A stretch of 62,691 bases of DNA, the filler included. It is 6 parts of 6 records of this genome, joined end to end, with 100 filler letters (N's around TTAATTAATTAA, not from the genome) between each part and the next. Parts side by side here need not be neighbours in the genome. Positions count along the whole stretch, not along the records: positions 16,986 to 25,712 come from SRR31156797_45939; 5 more parts are not named here. The stretch is one strand, 5' to 3'. Positions 16,986 through 25,712 of this stretch are shown here, in pieces. Position numbers and translations under genes: made by a program. The notes below the pieces were generated by a model. That model ran no database searches. It saw only the letters and a list, made by a program, of their open reading frames with translations, and had not been told where the DNA came from. Every line of letters starts with the position of its first letter. The stretch's first letter is position 1.

Positions 16986-17213
16986 GGCATCCACCAGCCC
17001 GGCGTAGGCCAGATCCGACGGATGCACGGTCAACTCTTCCGTGGTGATAAGGCCGCACCCGCCCTTGGCCCGTTCACGGTAGTAATAAATATGGCGTTCG
17101 CTGATTTGATGGTCTTCGGACAGATTGGTGAGATGGGCCGCGAAATTGATCCGGTTGGGAAGCACAACCGAACCGATTTTCAGGGGGGAGAAGAGATATC
17201 GATATGCGCTCAC
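16986..17213 (-). CDS. mycofactocin-system FadH/OYE family oxidoreductase 2 (5' fragment, truncated by gap)
   Basis: GTG start overlapping upstream TGA; YRYLFSPLKIG...NRINFAAHLTNL...YYRERAKGGCGLITTEE. Confidence 0.8.
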
Positions 17214-19153
17214 AGCCCTTCTCCCGCTTTTCGTCCTTCGTAAACGGCCATGCCCATGTCTCTTGGCGCCACGCAATCGCCGACCCGGTAGAGCCTTTTT
17301 ACCCTCCCCTTCAATCGGCGGTACAGGCCGTCGTCCGCCCGGTTTCCCATATCCAGGACAACGGTGTCGTAATCCTCAAAAAAAATCGCGCTGTTCGTGT
17401 AAATATTTCTTGCTTTCACCCGGTTCCCACGGATTTCATCCACCACCACGTCGGTGATAAAGGAGACTCCTTTTTGAAGCAGGCGCTGGCGGGTCAAATA
17501 GAGATCCCCCAGGGGCCCCAGCTCAACGCCGATAAAAAGATCGCCGGTGGCCATATCCACCTTTTTCCCCTGATCCGCAAGCCTTTCCACGGTGGCGGCG
17601 GCATGGTGCCCGCCGTTTTCATCGATAAAGAGAACCTTTTCCCCCACCGGGTAACTTTCTTTCATCACATCCCACACATTCTGCACAAAAGGCGGACCGT
17701 AGTCTCCGGGAACGGGCCTTTTGATGGGTCTTGATCCCGTGGCAATGATCACCGCGTCCGGACGTTTCTCTTCAATCCATGATGGCGTCGCCTCGCATCC
17801 CGTGATGATGGGAACGCCCAGCTGTTCCAGCCGGTGGGTCAAATAGCGGATCACTTCCCACATGCCCCCCCGTCCAGCGCCCTTTATGAGGAGGGTCATC
17901 TGTCCTCCCACCCGGTCCGCCTTTTCGTACACAGCAACATCATGCCCCTTTTTTCGAGCGCTCAGGGCGGCCGCAAGACCTGCGGGACCGGCGCCCACAA
18001 CCAGAACTTTTTTTGCAGGGGGATCCTTCTTTTCAACAATGCCGGTTTTCTCGAAGCCCACCTCCGGATTCTGGATGCAGCTAAGGGTTTTGGACTGGTT
18101 GATGCGGCCGATGCATCCCTGGTTGTCCCGCACGCAATAGCGGATGTCCATGGGCCGGCCTTGGAGAGCCTTTTTGGGGCAGTCCGGATCGCAGATGAGA
18201 TTGCGGATGAGGCCGACGGCGTCCCCCTGCCCTGTTTCAAGAATCTCTTCCGCCATTTGGGGCGTATGGATCTGGTGACTGGCGATCACCGGAATATTCA
18301 CGGCGGATTTAATCCGGGCCGCCGTCTCGATGGTGAAGCCTGAGGGCGTGTGCATGGAGGGCATCAAAAGATGAAGGTTGTAGTAGGTGCCCACGGCCAC
18401 GTTGATGAACTGCGCCTGACCCTCTTCTTCAAAGACCTTGGCCATTTCACAGGATTCATCCGGGGCTATGGCGCCCCAGAACTTTTCGTCGGCGCACAAA
18501 CGGATGCCAAAGGTGAAATCGTCCCCGGTCTTTTGGCGGACCTCTTTTAATATATCAAGGGGGAGCCGCATGCGGTTTGTAAGGCTCCCCCCGTATTCAT
18601 CCTGCCGGTGATTGCTCAAAGGGGAGAGAAACTGCCTGAGAAGGGATTCGGGCCCCATATCGATCTCCAGGCCGTCGAATCCCCCTTCCCGCGCCCGGAC
18701 CGCGGCCCGTCCGAAGGCGTCTATTACCGCGGCCATGTCTTCCGGTTCCATGGGTTTGGCCGTCTCTCCGAAGGCGATGTCCGACAGGGCCGAAGGCCCC
18801 CACACCGCATGGCGTGTGACGGCGCCGCTCCCTTGAAAGCCGTGATGGTTCAATTGGGCGAATACGAGGGTGTCGAAATGGTGAATGGACCGGGTGAGTC
18901 TTTTGAAGTCTTCCACCGCATGGGAACCGTACGCTTCGATCATACCCTCCCACGGACGGTCATTTTCATGGATCGCCATCTCTCCCACCACAATCAGGCC
19001 GCATCCCCCTTCGGCCCTGCGCCGGTAGTAGGCAACATGGCCTTTGCTCAACCTCCCTTTCCGGGCAAAGTTGGTGCGGTGCGCCAGAAAACAGATGCGG
19101 TTTTTGAGGGTTTTAGTTCCAAAATTGATGGGGCTTTTGAGATGATCAAACAT
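17210..19153 (-). CDS. mycofactocin-system FadH/OYE family oxidoreductase 1 (FMN TIM barrel, Fe-S, FAD/NAD domains)
   Basis: NRICFLAHRTNF, RQDEYGGSLTNRMR, CVRDNQGC...CIQNP, VVGAGPAG; directly downstream of mftC. Confidence 0.88.
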   Translation of the reverse strand: MFDHLKSPINFGTKTLKNRICFLAHRTNFARKGRLSKGHVAYYRRRAEGGCGLIVVGEMAIHENDRPWEGMIEAYGSHAVEDFKRLTRSIHHFDTLVFAQLNHHGFQGSGAVTRHAVWGPSALSDIAFGETAKPMEPEDMAAVIDAFGRAAVRAREGGFDGLEIDMGPESLLRQFLSPLSNHRQDEYGGSLTNRMRLPLDILKEVRQKTGDDFTFGIRLCADEKFWGAIAPDESCEMAKVFEEEGQAQFINVAVGTYYNLHLLMPSMHTPSGFTIETAARIKSAVNIPVIASHQIHTPQMAEEILETGQGDAVGLIRNLICDPDCPKKALQGRPMDIRYCVRDNQGCIGRINQSKTLSCIQNPEVGFEKTGIVEKKDPPAKKVLVVGAGPAGLAAALSARKKGHDVAVYEKADRVGGQMTLLIKGAGRGGMWEVIRYLTHRLEQLGVPIITGCEATPSWIEEKRPDAVIIATGSRPIKRPVPGDYGPPFVQNVWDVMKESYPVGEKVLFIDENGGHHAAATVERLADQGKKVDMATGDLFIGVELGPLGDLYLTRQRLLQKGVSFITDVVVDEIRGNRVKARNIYTNSAIFFEDYDTVVLDMGNRADDGLYRRLKGRVKRLYRVGDCVAPRDMGMAVYEGRKAGEGL

Positions 19154-20180
19154 GGGATACCTGACGTCTGAAATCGGATCTCAAATTCACCAAACATTCC
19201 GGGTCCGGCATGTTGATGTCTTGGTAGGTGTGATAGGCCATTGCCGGGCACCCTCCCCGGCAGACCTCGAACCGTTCACAGGTCACGCAGGTCTCCACAT
19301 TCAGATTGCGCAACTCCCTAAAAACCGGGGCCTGGTCCCACATGGTCTTGAACGACCCGTCCCGAACGTTTCCCACCAGAAAGGGCGGTTCCTGCAAAAA
19401 GGCGCAGGGGTAGACATGGCCCGTGGGGGAGATGCAGCAGGTCATCTTGGCGGCCCCGCACATATCCAACCCCTTGCGCCGCCGGTTTTCTGAAGTAAGA
19501 CAAAAAAAGGAATCCCCCGTCCGCACCAGATCATGCCCTTCCAGCCACCGGGCAAAGGCCTCCAGCTGCCATTTTGCAGGCCCCAGCGAATCCCGGCTCC
19601 CCTTGGCCCTGCCGGACGGCCGGAACCGGGAAACCCGCAGTTCCGACCCGTAAGTGCCGGCTATTTTCCGGAGGTCTTCCAGTTGCGGGTAATTGGTGCG
19701 GGTCAAAACCGTGTTAAGGCTGAACTTCACCCCGTGGCGCGCCAGGCAATCGGCGGCTTTAAGGATCTTTTGGTAGGTCCCTTCACCCCTTATGGGATCG
19801 TTAACCTCCGCCGTGGCGCCGTCCAGGCTCACCTGCAAATAGAGCATCTTCAGCCGGGACAACTGCCGGGCCATTGCGTCGTCAATGAGCAGGCCGTTGG
19901 TGCTGACGCAGGTCACCAGCCCCTTTTCATGGCAATAATTCAGCAGATCCGGAAAATCGCCCCGGATGAACGGTTCCCCGCCGCCGATATTAACCTGAAA
20001 CACCCGGAGTGACGTCAATTGGTCCACCAGCTTGCGGCATTCACCATGGGTCAACTCGTTTTCACCGGGGAGACCCGCATCGGAAAGGCAGTGAACGCAA
20101 CGGAGATTGCATTTCAGGGTGATTTCCCAGGTGACGTTCACCGGCGCCCGAAGCCCCATTCTGGCCATTTTAGCACTCAA
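19146..20180 (-). CDS. mftC: mycofactocin radical SAM/SPASM maturase
   Basis: WEITLKCNLRCVHC, VNIGGGEP, QVSLDGA, RFRPSGR, SPASM cysteines (CGAAKMTC...YPC...CxxC...CRGGC...PDPEC); adjacent to mftAB. Confidence 0.93.
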   Translation of the reverse strand: MSAKMARMGLRAPVNVTWEITLKCNLRCVHCLSDAGLPGENELTHGECRKLVDQLTSLRVFQVNIGGGEPFIRGDFPDLLNYCHEKGLVTCVSTNGLLIDDAMARQLSRLKMLYLQVSLDGATAEVNDPIRGEGTYQKILKAADCLARHGVKFSLNTVLTRTNYPQLEDLRKIAGTYGSELRVSRFRPSGRAKGSRDSLGPAKWQLEAFARWLEGHDLVRTGDSFFCLTSENRRRKGLDMCGAAKMTCCISPTGHVYPCAFLQEPPFLVGNVRDGSFKTMWDQAPVFRELRNLNVETCVTCERFEVCRGGCPAMAYHTYQDINMPDPECLVNLRSDFRRQVSHV

Positions 20181-20445
20181 TGATGACCCCTTTCCCTTTA
20201 AGACGATCCAAGCCTCTCTCCATTTCCCTCACACGGTCTTGTGCCACCCGGCCCGCCCGGTTTTCCCTTTCCAACCATTCCTCCAGGGTATGATCACCTT
20301 GGAAAAACCCCTCATCCAGCGATGTGCCGGAAGAGAGAAAATAGAGTCTCGGCCCTTTCATGGTGTAGAACAACAGACCGAAATCCTCGTTTCTCACCTG
20401 GGTGCCGGGAGCCAGGACATACCTTGAATTGTTTAGTGCATTCAT
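20170..20445 (-). CDS. mftB: mycofactocin biosynthesis chaperone (RiPP recognition element)
   Basis: QVRNEDFGLLFY...PRLYFL motif, about 91 aa, located between mftA and mftC. Confidence 0.88.
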   Translation of the reverse strand: MNALNNSRYVLAPGTQVRNEDFGLLFYTMKGPRLYFLSSGTSLDEGFFQGDHTLEEWLERENRAGRVAQDRVREMERGLDRLKGKGVIIEC

Positions 20446-20467
20446 GTGGCTGAATTTTAAAAGGCGG

Positions 20468-20590
20468 CTAATAAACGCCGCAGATGCCGTCAATGGCCAT
20501 TTCTTCGATCTCGATCTCTTCGGTTGCGAAGATATCTTCCTGTATATTTTCCGTGCTATCTAATTTTACCGTTTTTTCTTCATCTTTCAT
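20468..20590 (-). CDS. mftA: mycofactocin precursor peptide, 40 aa: MKDEEKTVKLDSTENIQEDIFATEEIEIEEMAIDGICGVY
   Basis: manually translated; acidic leader and C-terminal IDGxCGVY signature; AGGAG RBS upstream; absent from the ORF track. Confidence 0.96.
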   Translation of the reverse strand: MKDEEKTVKLDSTENIQEDIFATEEIEIEEMAIDGICGVY

Positions 20591-20729
20591 CGTTTTGTTA
20601 AATCTCCTGTTTATTAAAATTTTGTTTCGAGTTTCTTTTTCGGGACTTAATTCTTTTTAAATATTATCCCTGATTCATGTCACAAGGGGAATTTCATTTT
20701 GATTTACCCGCCCATGCAAAGGAAGCACA

Positions 20730-20744
20730 GCAATATTTGTGCCA
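20730..20744 (-). promoter_or_regulatory. sigma-54 (-24/-12) promoter of the mft operon
   Basis: minus strand TGGCAC-AAATA-TTGC, an exact match to TGGCAC-N5-TTGC. Confidence 0.8.
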
Positions 20745-21094
20745 AGAAGAATAAATTCAGGGGAAGAGGAATATCCGCATAAGCTTAGAGGAGAATTGAT
20801 TCCCACCGAGGCTTTCCACATGGGGCACACAATTCATTTATGGGGACAAATGCCCCATGCATTGAATAAAAATTACGGGTTAACTTTAAGATATTATTAC
20901 CTAATATATTCATTCGGGGCCAGATGGGGTCAAAGAGGATATAACTGATCCATTCTGGAAGCCCCTTCAACAGTCGATGAAAGCTATCTCACATTTTTTC
21001 AAATGGAGTAGCTTGTGCCTAACGTTTTCAACTCGTTTTCTATACCGTTCCACGCCTCCTTCGAAGCCAGGGATGAAAATATAAGGGTGGTATC

Positions 21095-21109
21095 TGGTGC
21101 GATTATTGC
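21095..21109 (+). promoter_or_regulatory. putative sigma-54 promoter of the amiS/ureI-like gene
   Basis: TGGTGC-GATTA-TTGC with correct GG-N10-GC spacing. Confidence 0.55.
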
Positions 21110-21365
21110 ACAGGTTCCCGGCATTGAGTTCGGGAACTTTTCTTATGGAAATCGTGAGCGAGGGTTTATGACCATTTCTGAAGTCCCATGTGAACCTTCA
21201 AAACCGGTTGGATTTCCTTGTTCAAGCTTGTGGGGATTCACGCGCCATTCTAACGGAAAGGGGTTGGTAGCCATGTGCCGGATGCATTAAAAAATACTGT
21301 TCTTGGTTTTCCATGTTATGTGAACCTTTAGTTTTCACTAAAACAGTCAAACAAGGAGGAATGAG

Positions 21366-21899
21366 ATGACTTTAGCAGTTCTTGTAGCAATTAGCGTCAT
21401 GTGGGTGCCTCTGGCGATTTTTTTGTTGGGTAAAGGTGAGGGCAAAAGCACCGGTGCCGTCTGCGGCATGGTGGGAACGGTTGTGATCATAGGTGCGATT
21501 CTTCAGGCAGCCGTTTTCAAGGATGGTTTCGTTGCCGGGTTGCTCTTTGCACATGGTCTCCTGTACTTGACCACTTCCTACGCTCTGGTAACCGGCGTGG
21601 AAGACGGCCTCAAAACCAACTCCAACGTCAGTTTGACAGTGGCCGTTATATCCCTAATCTACGCCATTCTCTTCTTCACGGGCGGGCCGGTCCTGGAAGG
21701 CGGCAAGAGATTGCTGGAATCCAGCAATTACTTTGGATTTTGTTGCCTGGGTTATGTGGTCCTTACCCTTGAGGTATGGGGTTTCGGTTACGGCAAGTGT
21801 TCGGCCCCGCTTTTGGCCTGGTCACTCATCCTGTGGGCATTTATCGGCCTGTGGGCTCCTGCCTTCTGGCTGTTTACCACCGGCGTCCTGCCGTTTTAA
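21366..21899 (+). CDS. AmiS/UreI family small-molecule channel
   Basis: 177 aa with about six hydrophobic helices; LLGKGEGKSTG, LLFAHGLLYL, WAPAFWL pattern; AAGGAGG RBS. Confidence 0.7.
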   Translation: MTLAVLVAISVMWVPLAIFLLGKGEGKSTGAVCGMVGTVVIIGAILQAAVFKDGFVAGLLFAHGLLYLTTSYALVTGVEDGLKTNSNVSLTVAVISLIYAILFFTGGPVLEGGKRLLESSNYFGFCCLGYVVLTLEVWGFGYGKCSAPLLAWSLILWAFIGLWAPAFWLFTTGVLPF

Positions 21900-21950
21900 A
21901 TAATCCCCGGGGCTACCTCTGTTTCAAGCACAGGTTATACGACCATATCA

Positions 21951-21983
21951 ATACCAGCCCAGGGCGTTGCCCCGGGCTGGTAT
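21951..21983. terminator. hairpin between convergent genes (likely terminator)
   Basis: ATACCAGCCCAGGGC-GTT-GCCCCGGGCTGGTAT. Confidence 0.6.
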
Positions 21984-22001
21984 GTGGGCCTTACCGAACG
22001 G

Positions 22002-23234
22002 TTATCGATTGCCGAAGTCCGTTTCTTCACCCATGCAACAGGTGAACATCTTCTTTGCGTCTTCGAAGCTCACATCCTGGGGATTGCCTTCCGTACAGAT
22101 GTCGTTGAGTACGCCTTTCGCGCAAACATCCAGATCTTGCTTATTCATGCCAAGATCCTTAAAATTCTTGCGGATACCGAGTTCGTACCGAAGTTCTTCC
22201 ACAGCATCAATGAACTTTTCCCCCGCCTTGTATGCCGACATGCCGATAGTGTTGATATGAGCCGCTTCAGCCATCATCTTGAAACGCTCGGGACATGCAG
22301 CCAGGTTGTAACGGCAAACATCCACAAGGCCGATGGCGTTGCACAATCCATGGGGAGCGTCGTAGCGTCCCCCCAGAACATGCGCCATGGAATGAACGAT
22401 TCCCAGGCCTGCACTGTTGAAACTGATACCCGCCGCCAATTCGGCCCAAACCATTTGTTCAATGGCCTGGTCATTGTTACGGTTTGCCGATGATTGGCGT
22501 ACATTGTCAAAGATCTGTCCGATGGCCCACAACCCCGGTCCATAGGCTGACTGCACAAGCAATCGTGACGCGATTGCTTCCACGGAATGGGTTAGAGCGT
22601 CCATCCCGGTATAGGCGGCAATATCTCCGGTCATGCACTGATGGAGAGCCGGGTCGTTGATGCCGAGACTCGGCGAGCAATTCGGATCAAAGAGCGCCAT
22701 TTTATAACTCTCATCCGTCTGATTGATAATGGAAAAACAGGACGCTTCAGACCCTGTGCCCGACGTGGTATTGATGGCAAGATGAGGGACCTTGTTGGGT
22801 TTGGTGGCCTTGAACGCACCTTCAAATTCTCTGACGTTTTGCCCCCCGTGCGCATGAACCAGCCTAATGGCCTTACAACAGTCCGTAGAGCTGCCGCCGC
22901 CAAGACTTACCAGCCCGTCGAAACCGCCGTAGCTGAACTTTTCATAGCCTTCCATGACCTCGTGGTCCTTGGGATTTCCCGTAACATTGTCGTACACGCT
23001 GCATTCAACGCCTGCATGTGTCAAAATCCCCTGGATTTCATCAACAATCCCGGTTCCATTTAAGCCGGTGGTCACGAGCAGGGCATTGGTCATGCCCAGA
23101 TCCTTGGCTTCATTTCCCACCATGGTGTGAGCGCCCCATCCGATGATTAACCTCGGGTATGCATGCATCATCTTTAGAGGATACTCAGTTCTTTCCTTTT
23201 GAATGGTTCGCTTCGTGTCTGCAAAATGTACCAT
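22002..23234 (-). CDS. mdo: type III (Fe-ADH family) nicotinoprotein alcohol dehydrogenase, Mdo/Mno (NDMA-dependent methanol dehydrogenase)-like
   Basis: YPLKMMHAYPRLIIGWGAH...GNEAKDLG...TTGLNGTGI...NPKDHEVM...GGGSSTD...AHGGQNVREFEG...FNSAGLGIVHS...DICTEGNP parallels actinobacterial Mno/Mdo from memory; TAAGGAG RBS before ATG 23234. Confidence 0.8.
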   Translation of the reverse strand: MVHFADTKRTIQKERTEYPLKMMHAYPRLIIGWGAHTMVGNEAKDLGMTNALLVTTGLNGTGIVDEIQGILTHAGVECSVYDNVTGNPKDHEVMEGYEKFSYGGFDGLVSLGGGSSTDCCKAIRLVHAHGGQNVREFEGAFKATKPNKVPHLAINTTSGTGSEASCFSIINQTDESYKMALFDPNCSPSLGINDPALHQCMTGDIAAYTGMDALTHSVEAIASRLLVQSAYGPGLWAIGQIFDNVRQSSANRNNDQAIEQMVWAELAAGISFNSAGLGIVHSMAHVLGGRYDAPHGLCNAIGLVDVCRYNLAACPERFKMMAEAAHINTIGMSAYKAGEKFIDAVEELRYELGIRKNFKDLGMNKQDLDVCAKGVLNDICTEGNPQDVSFEDAKKMFTCCMGEETDFGNR

Positions 23235-23569
23235 ATTACCACTCCTTATTCCGTTTCTCGGGGTTGTTGGTAATCCCAACTCAAGCAGACGTCCAGAGAG
23301 AAAAAGGGTCGATTGCGCCATTCAATCGCTTGAGCAGGCGCTTTTAGCGACCGATTTGAACTCACCGGATGCAAGCTCAATAGAAGGAGGTCTATGTTTT
23401 AGCTATCACCTCCCTTCCGGATCCATAGTGTTTCTCCACATAGCATCTTCCTCAATTATGTGGCACAAACTGAACAACACCGTGCCGTTACAATTCGGTC
23501 TCGTACTCTTTCAGGTGGGCTGTATGACTCACAATCGAATTTTCCAGACCTTAACATTCATCAATCTCA

Positions 23570-23584
23570 GCAATATTCATGCCA
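23570..23584 (-). promoter_or_regulatory. sigma-54 promoter upstream of the mdo-like gene
   Basis: minus strand TGGCAT-GAATA-TTGC; 13/15 identical to the mftA promoter. Confidence 0.75.
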
Positions 23585-24088
23585 ACGAGTTTATCCAAAG
23601 CGGGTGGAAGATGCCAGGGCGGGGGAACAGCAAATAACATATTAAAATTCTAAGCCATATCGCAAAAACGCTGCCTGACCGATCAGCAGGTTAGTGTGTA
23701 TCTGAAGGCTCCACGCCGACCCTGGACATTTTGTAAGAGGGGTCTAAAAAGAAGATGATCCGGCTTTCAAGTCCAAACAAACATCCAAAAATACGTAGCA
23801 AACAAGCTAAAAGCAGTTATGGGGCAAAATTGGACATATGGCCCCACACAATCGTCCGCCAGGTTAGAATCCATTGCAGAGAAGCGATTCGTTGATTCCA
23901 AAGCTGAAAGAAAAACACCGCTATCACGTAAAAAACGCCCTTTACTTAACCATGATTTTGTTGACCAGCGGACTGATGGCGGAGCAAGGTCGACCTGTAA
24001 TGAAAAATTTGCAATCTCCTTTTAGCTATGGTAAAGACCGATACACCACATATGGTTATGAATTTTGAATCTAAGGTGGGCTATAAAA

Positions 24089-25249
24089 ATGGATCCTTCC
24101 GATGACGCTCTGTTAAAATTTGAGCTTCCTGAAATCATTTACGGGTTGGGTTCTTTGTCCCAGATCGGACAGTGCGCCAAACGGTTGGGCGGGGAAAGAG
24201 TTTTTTTGGTGACCGATCCGGGTGTCATTGAGGCCGGTTGGGTCCATGACGGCATCAAATCCCTGGAACGGCAGTCTCTCAGGCACGTCATTTATGACAA
24301 TGTAGTCACCAATCCCCGCTGTTTTCAGGTGGAGCAGGGTGCCAAACTTTATAATGAAAAGAAATGCGATGTGATCGTTGCCGTGGGCGGCGGCAGCCCC
24401 ATGGATGCAGCCAAGGGAATTGCCATCCTGGTGTCAAACCGCGGTAAAATAGACGATTACGCCGGATGCAACCTGATCACCCAACCGATCCCACCGCTCA
24501 TATGCGTGCCCACCACAGCCGGCACCGGTTCGGATGTCAGCCAATTTTCCATCATTGCGGATCCTCAAAAGCAACTCAAAATGACGATTCTAAGCCGGGC
24601 CATTATGGCTGATATTTCCCTGATCGATCCCCGGCTGCTTAAAACCAAATCCCGCGAACTGATGGCCGCCACGGGTATGGATGCTCTGACCCATGCCATT
24701 GAAGCATATGTTTCCTCGCTGGCCTGGCCCCTTACGGACCCCCATGCCATCCATGCCATTGAACTGGTTTTCGCGCACTTGCGGAAAGCGGCCGACACCG
24801 GAGACATCAAATCGCTGGAGGGCATGGCCGTTGCCAGTCTTGAAGCCGGAATCGCATTTTCCAATGCGATCTTAGGCGCTGTTCATGCGCTGGCCCACCC
24901 TTTAAGCGGCGTTTATGATATCCATCATGGTATCGCCAATGCCATTCTGTTGCCGGTGGTGGTCCGGAAAAACATGCCGCACGCAGTTCAAAAATTCGCC
25001 CGTATCGCCAATGCCATGGGTCTGGATACCCGGGGAAAATCCGATGTGGAAGCTGCCGGATACGTTCCACGGATGGTCCAAGAGTTGGTTACATACCTTG
25101 ATCTTCCCACCACCCTTTCAGAAATCGGAGTCAAATCCGTCGACATATCAACCATGGCCAGGGACGCAGCGCGGGATCTTTGCATGCAAACCAATCCGCA
25201 CTGCTACGGAATTGAGGAAATCGAATCCATGTACCAAGAGGCTCTATAG
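24089..25249 (+). CDS. iron-containing alcohol dehydrogenase, ErcA-like regulatory type
   Basis: KFELPEIIYG...LVTDPGVIEAGW, GGGSPMD, PTTAGTGS, DALTHAIE, HALAH, HGIAN; followed after 9 bp by a PAS sensor gene. Confidence 0.85.
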   Translation: MDPSDDALLKFELPEIIYGLGSLSQIGQCAKRLGGERVFLVTDPGVIEAGWVHDGIKSLERQSLRHVIYDNVVTNPRCFQVEQGAKLYNEKKCDVIVAVGGGSPMDAAKGIAILVSNRGKIDDYAGCNLITQPIPPLICVPTTAGTGSDVSQFSIIADPQKQLKMTILSRAIMADISLIDPRLLKTKSRELMAATGMDALTHAIEAYVSSLAWPLTDPHAIHAIELVFAHLRKAADTGDIKSLEGMAVASLEAGIAFSNAILGAVHALAHPLSGVYDIHHGIANAILLPVVVRKNMPHAVQKFARIANAMGLDTRGKSDVEAAGYVPRMVQELVTYLDLPTTLSEIGVKSVDISTMARDAARDLCMQTNPHCYGIEEIESMYQEAL

Positions 25250-25258
25250 GGTTTTACC

Positions 25259-25712
25259 ATGGCCGATACCCAAATAGAAATATCCCATGATTTTAAAGGG
25301 ATCAACTATTCAAAGATCGGTTATTTCAAGGAAGTTCAATCCAAGATCAAAGAATTGGAAAAACTCAACCTCGAACTGGCACACCGCCATAGCAGGCTCG
25401 AGGCCATATTCAACAGCATGAGCGACGGTCTGACCATATTGGATAGAAATTTTACGATCGTGTTTACCAATCAGGTTCAGAAAAGCATGTTTCCGGATAT
25501 TACGACAATCGGGGAAAAATGCTTTAAAGCTTTCTTTCACAAGGAGAAAACATGCCGTGAATGTCCGGCATTGCGCAGTTTGGAGACCCTGAAAACCTTC
25601 CAGGGTGAAACCTTGATCAAGTCGGGGGCATATGCCGGACGTTACTATGAATGGACCAGTTCTCCCATCAAGGGCGCCAAGGGAAACGTGGATGAAATCA
25701 TTCTGCTCATGC
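25259..25712 (+). CDS. PAS-domain sensor protein, probably a histidine kinase (truncated by gap)
   Basis: coiled coil then LEAIFNSMSDGLTILD...IVFTN PAS domain with CFKAFFHKEKTCRECP. Confidence 0.8.

Follow-up and report, generated by a model that had tools for sequence, protein, structure and literature searches.

How might an anaerobic bacterium coordinate synthesis of the peptide-derived cofactor mycofactocin with the alcohol dehydrogenase that would use it? In actinobacteria the mycofactocin (mft) genes are controlled by MftR. We analyzed a window of 62.7 kb, the whole stretch of DNA at hand, which strings together six unrelated contigs with N linkers between them; the locus under study occupies only one of them, a contig of 8,727 bases (16986-25712). 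It carries mftA, mftB and mftC followed by two flavoprotein genes of the old yellow enzyme (OYE) type, a membrane channel gene, an iron-dependent alcohol dehydrogenase (Fe-ADH) gene, here called adh, and a gene for an ErcA-like protein with a histidine kinase gene behind it. The mftABC-OYE unit and adh are each preceded by a sigma-54 motif and, further upstream, by a palindromic site that they have in common. Judged from the sequence, the contig is likely a piece of an alcohol-oxidation regulon, in which mft-OYE and adh would be jointly sigma-54-controlled through the ErcA-kinase cassette.

A generic seven-position score for the −24/−12 promoter of sigma-54 revealed exactly two sites matching at 7/7 positions in the window, one before mftA (20729-20744, minus strand; predicted start near 20718) and one before adh (23569-23584, minus strand; predicted start near 23558). 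The string TTGGCAYRAATATTGC occurs twice, where 0.16 occurrences are expected for a pattern that was itself derived from both sites. The original prediction had placed near-identical sigma-54 motifs before these two genes, and they prove to be the sole perfect sites in the window. A motif 346-360 nt from the adh start is also present in four related loci (L085, L087, L089, L123). A weaker candidate (21095-21110, plus strand; 5/7 positions), absent from the original prediction, is an uncertain promoter for the channel gene. Scans of the contig for sigma-70 promoters and terminators gave counts not above shuffles, and an Rfam search of it gave zero matches.

An enhancer-like site lies upstream of each perfect motif. 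That of mftA (20821-20857) comprises a perfect 17-bp palindrome, TGGGG-N7-CCCCA, at 20841-20857 and a partial copy; the palindrome is 113 bp above the mftA motif and 254 bp above the candidate channel promoter. That of adh is a 27-mer of two overlapping imperfect 17-mers (23820-23846), 262 bp above the adh motif and at the same place in L085, L089 and L123. Both were scored with a model built from seven promoters of the window's subgroup, the window itself excluded (model score 117, against 88-98 in 20 shuffles run with fewer restarts). With this window-free model the site at 20841 ranks first on the contig (p = 0.002 against shuffles) and that at 23830 second (p = 0.018). The spacing of the channel motif to the palindrome falls within the 251-274 bp seen in the close adh promoters, and the motif at 21095 could be served by the same palindrome as mftA.

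We compared the arrangement with that of relatives found through the dehydrogenase: of 175 metagenome loci the best 80 were used, and grouping at 97% identity reduced these to 38 groups. A motif of at least 5/7 positions was found in 19 of the 24 groups with 400 nt of upstream sequence (shuffles: mean 1, largest 4), and an ErcA gene was found upstream of the dehydrogenase gene in 9/11 groups; a sigma-54 activator is present in 10/12 and the channel in 6/8. Within the 80 loci, not de-duplicated, 26 hold mftA. When mftA lies 3.8-9.3 kb from adh it has its own sigma-54 motif in 14/14 loci; when it lies within 300 bp behind adh it has one in 0/12. The window is of the split type, with mftA far from adh and preceded by its own motif. 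A palindrome found de novo in 42 adh promoters of a larger group (67-74% identity) recurs at p ≤ 0.05 in 12/14 other mftA promoters, mostly near −155, and in 17/24 divergent promoters; three mftA "promoters" in coding sequence (L061, L063, L065) were left out of these counts. The predicted co-regulation of mft and the dehydrogenase by sigma-54 is supported by the motifs, the shared sites and this split.

The same question was asked from the mft side in a sample of 401 Desulfobacterota genomes (400 drawn plus the centre genome). MftC scores over its cut-off in 19/401, about 5% of sampled species (18/400 drawn). Among 16 loci with sequence upstream of mftC, a motif of at least 6/7 positions faces the mft genes in 10 and one of 5/7 in 3. 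An ErcA-like gene is present in 9/19 mftC genomes versus 30/382 others, so that 30/39 ErcA-like carriers have no mftC match. Seven of these 30 mftC-negative cassettes were examined with wider context: six adjoin an NPTD-type alcohol dehydrogenase gene, five of them together with an aldehyde oxidoreductase gene, and one adjoins a Zn-dependent alcohol dehydrogenase (Zn-ADH) gene. Because the mftC-negative cassettes examined lie mostly beside an ordinary dehydrogenase, we read the ErcA-kinase-activator cassette as a common alcohol-response module of Desulfobacterota, with mft and the Mdo-clade enzyme as one payload. An alcohol-sensing circuit for mycofactocin had been proposed; its linkage to mft and adh is conserved in relatives, and the circuit is not special to the cofactor. 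Behind the same ErcA cassette, or behind a FIST kinase cassette, we also observed SDR-type mft operons that include genes for DUF362, an Mrp ATPase, larB-larC and an aldehyde oxidoreductase (L055, L057, L059, L061, L063, L065 with L072, L074, L076, L078, L080, L083).

The ErcA-like protein (24089-25249, plus strand; 386 aa) is a probable sensory partner of the kinase. Its best match of 17 families is NF041833 (472 bits, cut-off 550), and it falls in its own 100/100 clade. Directly behind it a soluble PAS histidine kinase begins (25259-25712, plus strand); its N-terminal part matches PAS_4, carries a conserved GxxxSKIG motif and is cut by the contig end after the PAS domain. The fragment is 54-61% identical to full PAS-HisKA-HATPase kinases that have sigma-54 activators next to them. 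Of 43 matches to the ErcA-like gene, 30 loci were examined, and in 28 of them the kinase gene lies directly behind; a sigma-54 activator follows the same kinase in L123, L124, L055 and L057. The activators that relatives carry beside these genes are of the receiver-AAA-HTH type, and a GAFTGA-type motif is kept in 45/51 activators. The ErcA-like and PAS sensor pair of the original prediction is thus recognizable by best family and gene order, with the former under its family cut-off and the latter truncated. A complex prediction for the ErcA-like protein and the kinase N-terminus, made without alignments (score 0.11, mark 0.34), has no bearing either way. Kinases behind ErcA-like genes (window 25259-25350) share an N-terminal GxxxSK(I/L)G(F/Y) motif followed by a coiled coil, a possible docking site common to mft-positive and mft-negative genomes.

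In the circuit we propose, the ErcA-like protein would sense a short alcohol or its aldehyde, and the kinase would phosphorylate a sigma-54 activator encoded off the contig. The activator would bind TGKGG-N7-CCMCA-type sites and induce adh, the cofactor genes and, probably, the channel gene. The enzyme encoded by adh is predicted to keep NAD tightly bound and to hand electrons to a mycofactocin-like carrier, which may be re-oxidised by OYE_2, an electron-transfer flavoprotein (ETF) and a membrane Fe-S chain, whose genes follow mftC in relatives.

In a run that may be the source of the contig, depth is 71.6 over 16986-20611 and 34.5 over the rest, with the step at 20582-20611, some 20 nt ahead of the mftA start. 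With its depth doubled, the mft block occurs in a second upstream context as well, in a duplicate or a sibling strain. The same step raises the possibility that promoter and mftA were wrongly joined by the assembly at a branch point, which we regard as very improbable: a second study has a contig on which mftC, mftA, the motif (20724-20762) and the channel leader follow one another as they do here, and the promoter-mftA layout recurs in 14 other loci. Across the second-study contigs the orders mft-motif-channel and adh-motif-ercA are identical, with conserved islands on both motifs.

Several observations weigh against joint control through one cassette, the second context of the mft block among them. 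Two sites on another contig (14.8) score above the adh enhancer site (12.6), and three of the seven model promoters are orthologous to the window's adh promoter. Neither the window's mftA promoter (p = 0.47) nor 6/7 close adh promoters fit the larger group's motif, so that the window's site rests on the seven-promoter model. Only 4/9 groups with at least 8 kb downstream hold mftA, and some close relatives of the dehydrogenase have sigma-70-like upstream regions or a kinase-LuxR pair instead. On the mftC side, no motif of at least 5/7 was found before mft in 3/16 loci (G267, G332, G146), of the ten sites at 6/7 or better, two (G393, G347) are some 10-12 kb upstream, and the Fisher p of 1.4e-5 for ErcA enrichment is optimistic because the genomes are related. 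The window's dehydrogenase subfamily occurs in 1/401 genomes, the other mft loci using Zn-ADH, SDR or other Fe-ADH enzymes. The activator, ETF and mftF genes of the host organism are not on the contig, the last encoding the MftF glycosyltransferase.

Part of this evidence would also fit a scheme in which sigma-54 control is real, with separate activators for mft and adh or a non-alcohol signal, ErcA controlling adh only and the mft block being just its neighbour. The window's two upstream sites are unlike in quality and distance (113 versus 262 bp), one genome (G001) has a kinase-activator pair without ErcA, most ErcA carriers lack mftC, and the second context of the mft block has equal depth. 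We consider separate control unlikely, given that the motif is common to adh, mftA and divergent promoters in relatives, that mftA splits 14/14 and 0/12 by its distance from adh, and that the cassette is enriched in mftC genomes. Joint control through the ErcA-kinase cassette is the reading we prefer. In one subgroup of the dehydrogenase (L132, L133, L152, L164) we observed a sigma-70-like promoter over an AT-rich palindrome, which we take to be Fur-like, and a conserved G/C hairpin in a long leader.

The identity of the mft genes is confirmed by curated NCBIfam cut-offs, which MftA, MftB and MftC all pass, as the original prediction had assigned them. mftA (20468-20590, minus strand) encodes a variant-type precursor of 40 aa ending in IDGICGVY, with 32.7 bits against the variant model NF040489 (cut-off 30) and 27.7 against TIGR03969 (cut-off 25). 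It is followed by the chaperone gene mftB (20170-20445, minus strand; TIGR03967, 43.5 bits, cut-off 33), whose start codon is uncertain, and by mftC (19146-20180, minus strand), encoding the radical SAM/SPASM maturase (TIGR03962, 360.5 bits, cut-off 265). MftC is 89% identical to that of two Desulfatiglandales metagenome-assembled genomes, which supports, and does not prove, a Desulfobacterota host; of the 19 loci from this comparison, 17 held distant radical SAM genes and were excluded. Elsewhere we observed a VapC-like toxin-antitoxin pair between mftC and the first OYE gene in G001/G002 (L001:11060-11781), and extra MftA-like tails, DGxCGGY, behind MoxR-VWA genes beside a normal mftA (L064, L098, L100, L102, L103, L109, L111, L113, L115, L129, L134, L149, L151). 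In further loci mftA stands directly behind the client dehydrogenase gene and apart from mftB/C (L053 at 1273 and 13283, L062 at 15738, L091, L118, L121, L122); one of these loci holds two such copies.

Two OYE flavoproteins had been noted behind mftC, and both are present; a family profile check places both with the OYE_2 type and neither with OYE_1. The first FadH/OYE flavoprotein (17210-19153, minus strand; 647 aa) is an OYE_2-like paralogue, with 750.9 bits against TIGR03997 (cut-off 793); in alignment the His of the ELQxGH motif is absent and the Fe-S motif reads CxxDxxxC. A structural model of it (predicted local distance difference test, pLDDT, 80.9) matches naphthoyl-CoA reductase (NCR), FadH, trimethylamine dehydrogenase (TMADH), histamine dehydrogenase and HisD. 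The second, a mycofactocin OYE_2 of which the contig end leaves the 5′ 74 codons (16986-17207, minus strand), has TIGR03997 as best match and is 93-95% identical to the full-length OYE_2 of L001/L002; the L001 orthologue scores 866.9 bits against that family, over the cut-off.

The dehydrogenase (22002-23234, minus strand) is a group III Fe-ADH of 410 aa with the loop TGNPKDHEV; its start was corrected to 23234, and its relatives are also 410 aa long. The whole protein scores 287.9 bits against TIGR04266, under the cut-off of 625. In its first 110 aa TIGR04266 is the best family (93 bits versus 56.5 for the next). Identity to three Mdo members is 36-37%. A tree of 53 sequences groups it at 100/100 with three true Mdo, seven actinobacterial relatives under the cut-off and TSNPKDHEVH-type enzymes; the clade excludes ErcA-like proteins as well as the NPTD-type enzymes found in mftC-negative genomes, and its support is 99 when the outgroup is removed, the tree carrying a long-branch warning. 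The seven are Actinomycetota with an Mdo sister group (L245-L251; 496-526 bits) and a MadB-like neighbour. A search of plasmids for Mdo gave only ordinary Fe-ADHs, at 40%. The enzyme, predicted as Mdo/Mno-like, is accordingly placed as a sister subfamily of Mdo, sharing its clade and falling short of its family score, and not as a member.

Is this enzyme a mycofactocin client? Haft 2011 linked, in guarded terms, such an Fe-ADH to the mft genes of Geobacter and Desulfotomaculum by way of the loop TSNPKDYEVH (PMC3023750). The NPKDxE loop is also present in ErcA-like proteins, a further point against our reading; the loop was therefore rejected as a mycofactocin marker and is no proof of mycofactocin use. 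The dehydrogenase might instead be an ordinary NAD-exchanging enzyme, mft serving another client. Its failure against TIGR04266 would fit, as would its C-terminal 300 aa, which are closer to lactaldehyde reductase, its best match in the Protein Data Bank (PDB), an NAD-dependent methanol dehydrogenase, and the guarded wording of the earlier assignment. The Mdo clade speaks for a client, as do mftA lying directly behind the dehydrogenase gene in 12 loci and a MadB-like AAA gene found behind Mdo in 10/10 actinobacterial loci and behind many relatives of this enzyme. An ordinary dehydrogenase is improbable, slightly more so than separate control of mft and adh, and by clade and gene order the enzyme is a probable mycofactocin client.

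What the mft genes make is a separate matter. We counted enzymes in 20 mftC genomes, the 19 above plus G002. MftF is over its cut-off in 20/20, and MftE, MftD and MftR in 0/20; there is no full-length match of any kind to MftD in these genomes, and MftG was found in 0/5 genomes tried. Absence of mftE and mftF had been named as a sign against the prediction: mftE is absent from these relatives, and because mftF is in all of them, the absence marks a variant pathway and is not a refutation. With the standard oxygen-dependent finishing enzyme absent, the cofactor may be made by another route. OYE_2 is over its cut-off in 16/20 genomes and scores 587-736 bits in 3 more. Behind it in relatives lie ETF genes, joined either by genes for a multiheme cytochrome plus a CCG/Fe-S membrane protein or by one for a FixC-like protein.

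The product may, in consequence, not be classical mycofactocin: the MftC-modified peptide could stay uncleaved or be finished differently, through extra radical SAM enzymes and MftF. The MftE and MftD counts, with MftF as control, speak for it, as do the description of the MftD step as aerobic (PMC8406134) and two further radical SAM families that co-cluster. On the other side, these families are confined to 7/19 and 8/20 mftC genomes, the MftA peptide tail is conserved, mftE loss in Mycobacterium smegmatis merely delays growth on ethanol (PMC6529628), and generic creatininase homologues are present in 13/20 genomes. We hold a non-classical product to be a serious possibility, somewhat short of an even chance; it is compatible with joint sigma-54 control. 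The two radical SAM families, unnamed and covered by no curated family, are exemplified by L127:8323-9420 (in 8/20 mftC genomes) and L075:10769-11914 (in 7/19 versus 3/382 others). Three candidates were set aside: a third radical SAM enzyme replacing MftE and MftD is rejected as a general rule at only 7/19, the second family reaching 8/20; the creatininase match of G001 is an unlinked fusion protein and not MftE; and a 380-aa gene by mftF, considered as a peptidase, encodes a radical SAM protein. We also observed a creatininase domain fused behind a large unnamed domain, beside an epimerase-like gene and unlinked to mft (L165:1-2268).

For carrier re-oxidation, for the role of MftD, or for both, the best candidate is OYE_2. 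We offer a tentative scheme of oxygen-free finishing, a little less probable than a non-classical product, in which OYE_2 would deaminate the AHDP core in place of MftD and pass electrons to ETF, and the ETF chain (multiheme cytochrome and CCG Fe-S protein, or FixC-like protein) would replace MftG, all induced by the cassette. The scheme is drawn from the absence of MftD, the prevalence of OYE_2, its gene neighbours and its fold matches to amine dehydrogenases, those acting on trimethylamine, histamine and 6-hydroxypseudooxynicotine. Contrary to it, the structure nearest to the model is that of a reductase (NCR), the cysteine for covalent flavin attachment is lacking, and one genome (G356) has no close OYE_2. 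OYE_2 could also act in re-oxidation alone.

The remaining features lie between the two promoters or beyond the contig. The channel gene (21366-21899, plus strand; 177 aa) encodes a membrane protein that probably belongs to the AmiS/UreI family, as proposed. A direct Pfam search gave no match to it. Two homologues match PF02293 at 23.6 and 25.1 bits (cut-off 25), the family profile has UreI as its sole PDB match (E = 0.1), and the top Atlas matches (0.95-0.96) are AmiS_UreI clusters. A 15-bp hairpin (21951-21983; inverted repeat I7) is a probable terminator between the convergent channel and adh genes. The adh leader of about 325 nt contains a Shine-Dalgarno-like string, GGGAGGTGAT (23405-23414, minus strand), with no start codon behind it, recognized from relatives' leaders. 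Long adh leaders (180-360 nt; L085-L164) keep GGAGGTG in 14/19 cases versus 0/19 control stretches, with no conserved start codon behind; the element possibly stabilises mRNA, and a string resembling it lies in the channel leader (about 21254-21270). The adjoining contig (window 8559-16763) is closest in composition to that of the locus (0.91) and may share its organism; its genes, labelled by eye, include an acyl-CoA ligase, a thiolase pair, a flavoprotein, a GntR regulator and a TRAP binding protein, and it holds the two sites that score 14.8 with the enhancer model.

How much of this is new? The clusters of Geobacter uraniireducens and Desulfotomaculum acetoxidans resemble the locus in mftA-B-C(-F) and in an adjacent group III Fe-ADH with the NPKD loop (PMC3023750; NF040489, TIGR03997), and the same paper describes MftD, MftE and MftR as not universal. 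Its text contains nothing on sigma factors, sensors or OYE_2, so that within it sigma-54 promoters, a shared site and an ErcA cassette are not described (PMC3023750). The actinobacterial mftABCDEF(G) system with Mno/Mdo is alike in MftA, MftB, MftC and MftF and in an Mdo-clade enzyme followed by MadB/MadC-like genes (PMC11303327, PMC11778925), and unlike in that the anaerobic relatives lack MftD, MftE, MftR and, where tried, MftG. In M. smegmatis the client is likewise under a two-component system, MnoSR, with an Fe-ADH-like gene in the operon; the MnoR binding site reported is a single one, before mno and not mft (PMC11303327), whereas here cofactor and client share a predicted activator. Control instead of MftR, as originally proposed, agrees with the absence of MftR from the 20 genomes, and the contrast was overstated because mycobacterial Mno is itself under such a two-component system.

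The closest regulatory parallel comes from Pseudomonas. There the Fe-ADH-like protein of the ErcA/YiaY-ErcS/PP_2683-AgmR circuit is co-transcribed with a kinase and needed for the operon of a peptide-derived redox cofactor, pyrroloquinoline quinone (PQQ), and for its alcohol dehydrogenase; loss of ErcA/YiaY-kinase lowers PQQ dehydrogenase and pqq gene expression, and porin and FIST genes are nearby in both settings (PMC12997753). The differences are PQQ itself, a LuxR-type output regulator and aerobic life (PMC12997753), against a sigma-54 activator and an ErcA-like protein under its family cut-off here. By analogy, the ErcA-like regulon resembles ErcA/YiaY control of PQQ synthesis and its dehydrogenase. 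Another parallel is DVU2394 of Desulfovibrio vulgaris. Its gene is, we assume, preceded by an Fe-ADH gene and a kinase gene. DVU2394 is a sigma-54 response regulator that drives an alcohol dehydrogenase operon in a sulfate reducer; it differs in targeting adh-hdr genes without mycofactocin and in binding a direct repeat, not a palindrome (PMC3333781, PMC4641369). We found no publication on sigma-54 control of mycofactocin in a search of largely open-access literature, and nothing on this regulation is contained in the P. carbinolicus genome paper. The original prediction knew of no characterisation of the architecture: the sigma-54/ErcA control is apparently undescribed, while the link of Fe-ADH and mft was already in Haft 2011. 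The regulatory variant appears real, well conserved and built from known parts.

Work on mycofactocin has been confined almost entirely to aerobic mycobacteria. If our reading is true, about 5% of sampled Desulfobacterota species would oxidise alcohol through a mycofactocin variant under a named inducer circuit, and the predicted starts and binding sites would show how to switch the pathway on in cultured Geobacter. With a known inducer circuit, the identity, synthesis and recycling of the cofactor without MftD, MftE and MftG would become testable. One sensing module would then have been reused for two unrelated peptide-derived cofactors, PQQ and mycofactocin, and for plain NAD enzymes.

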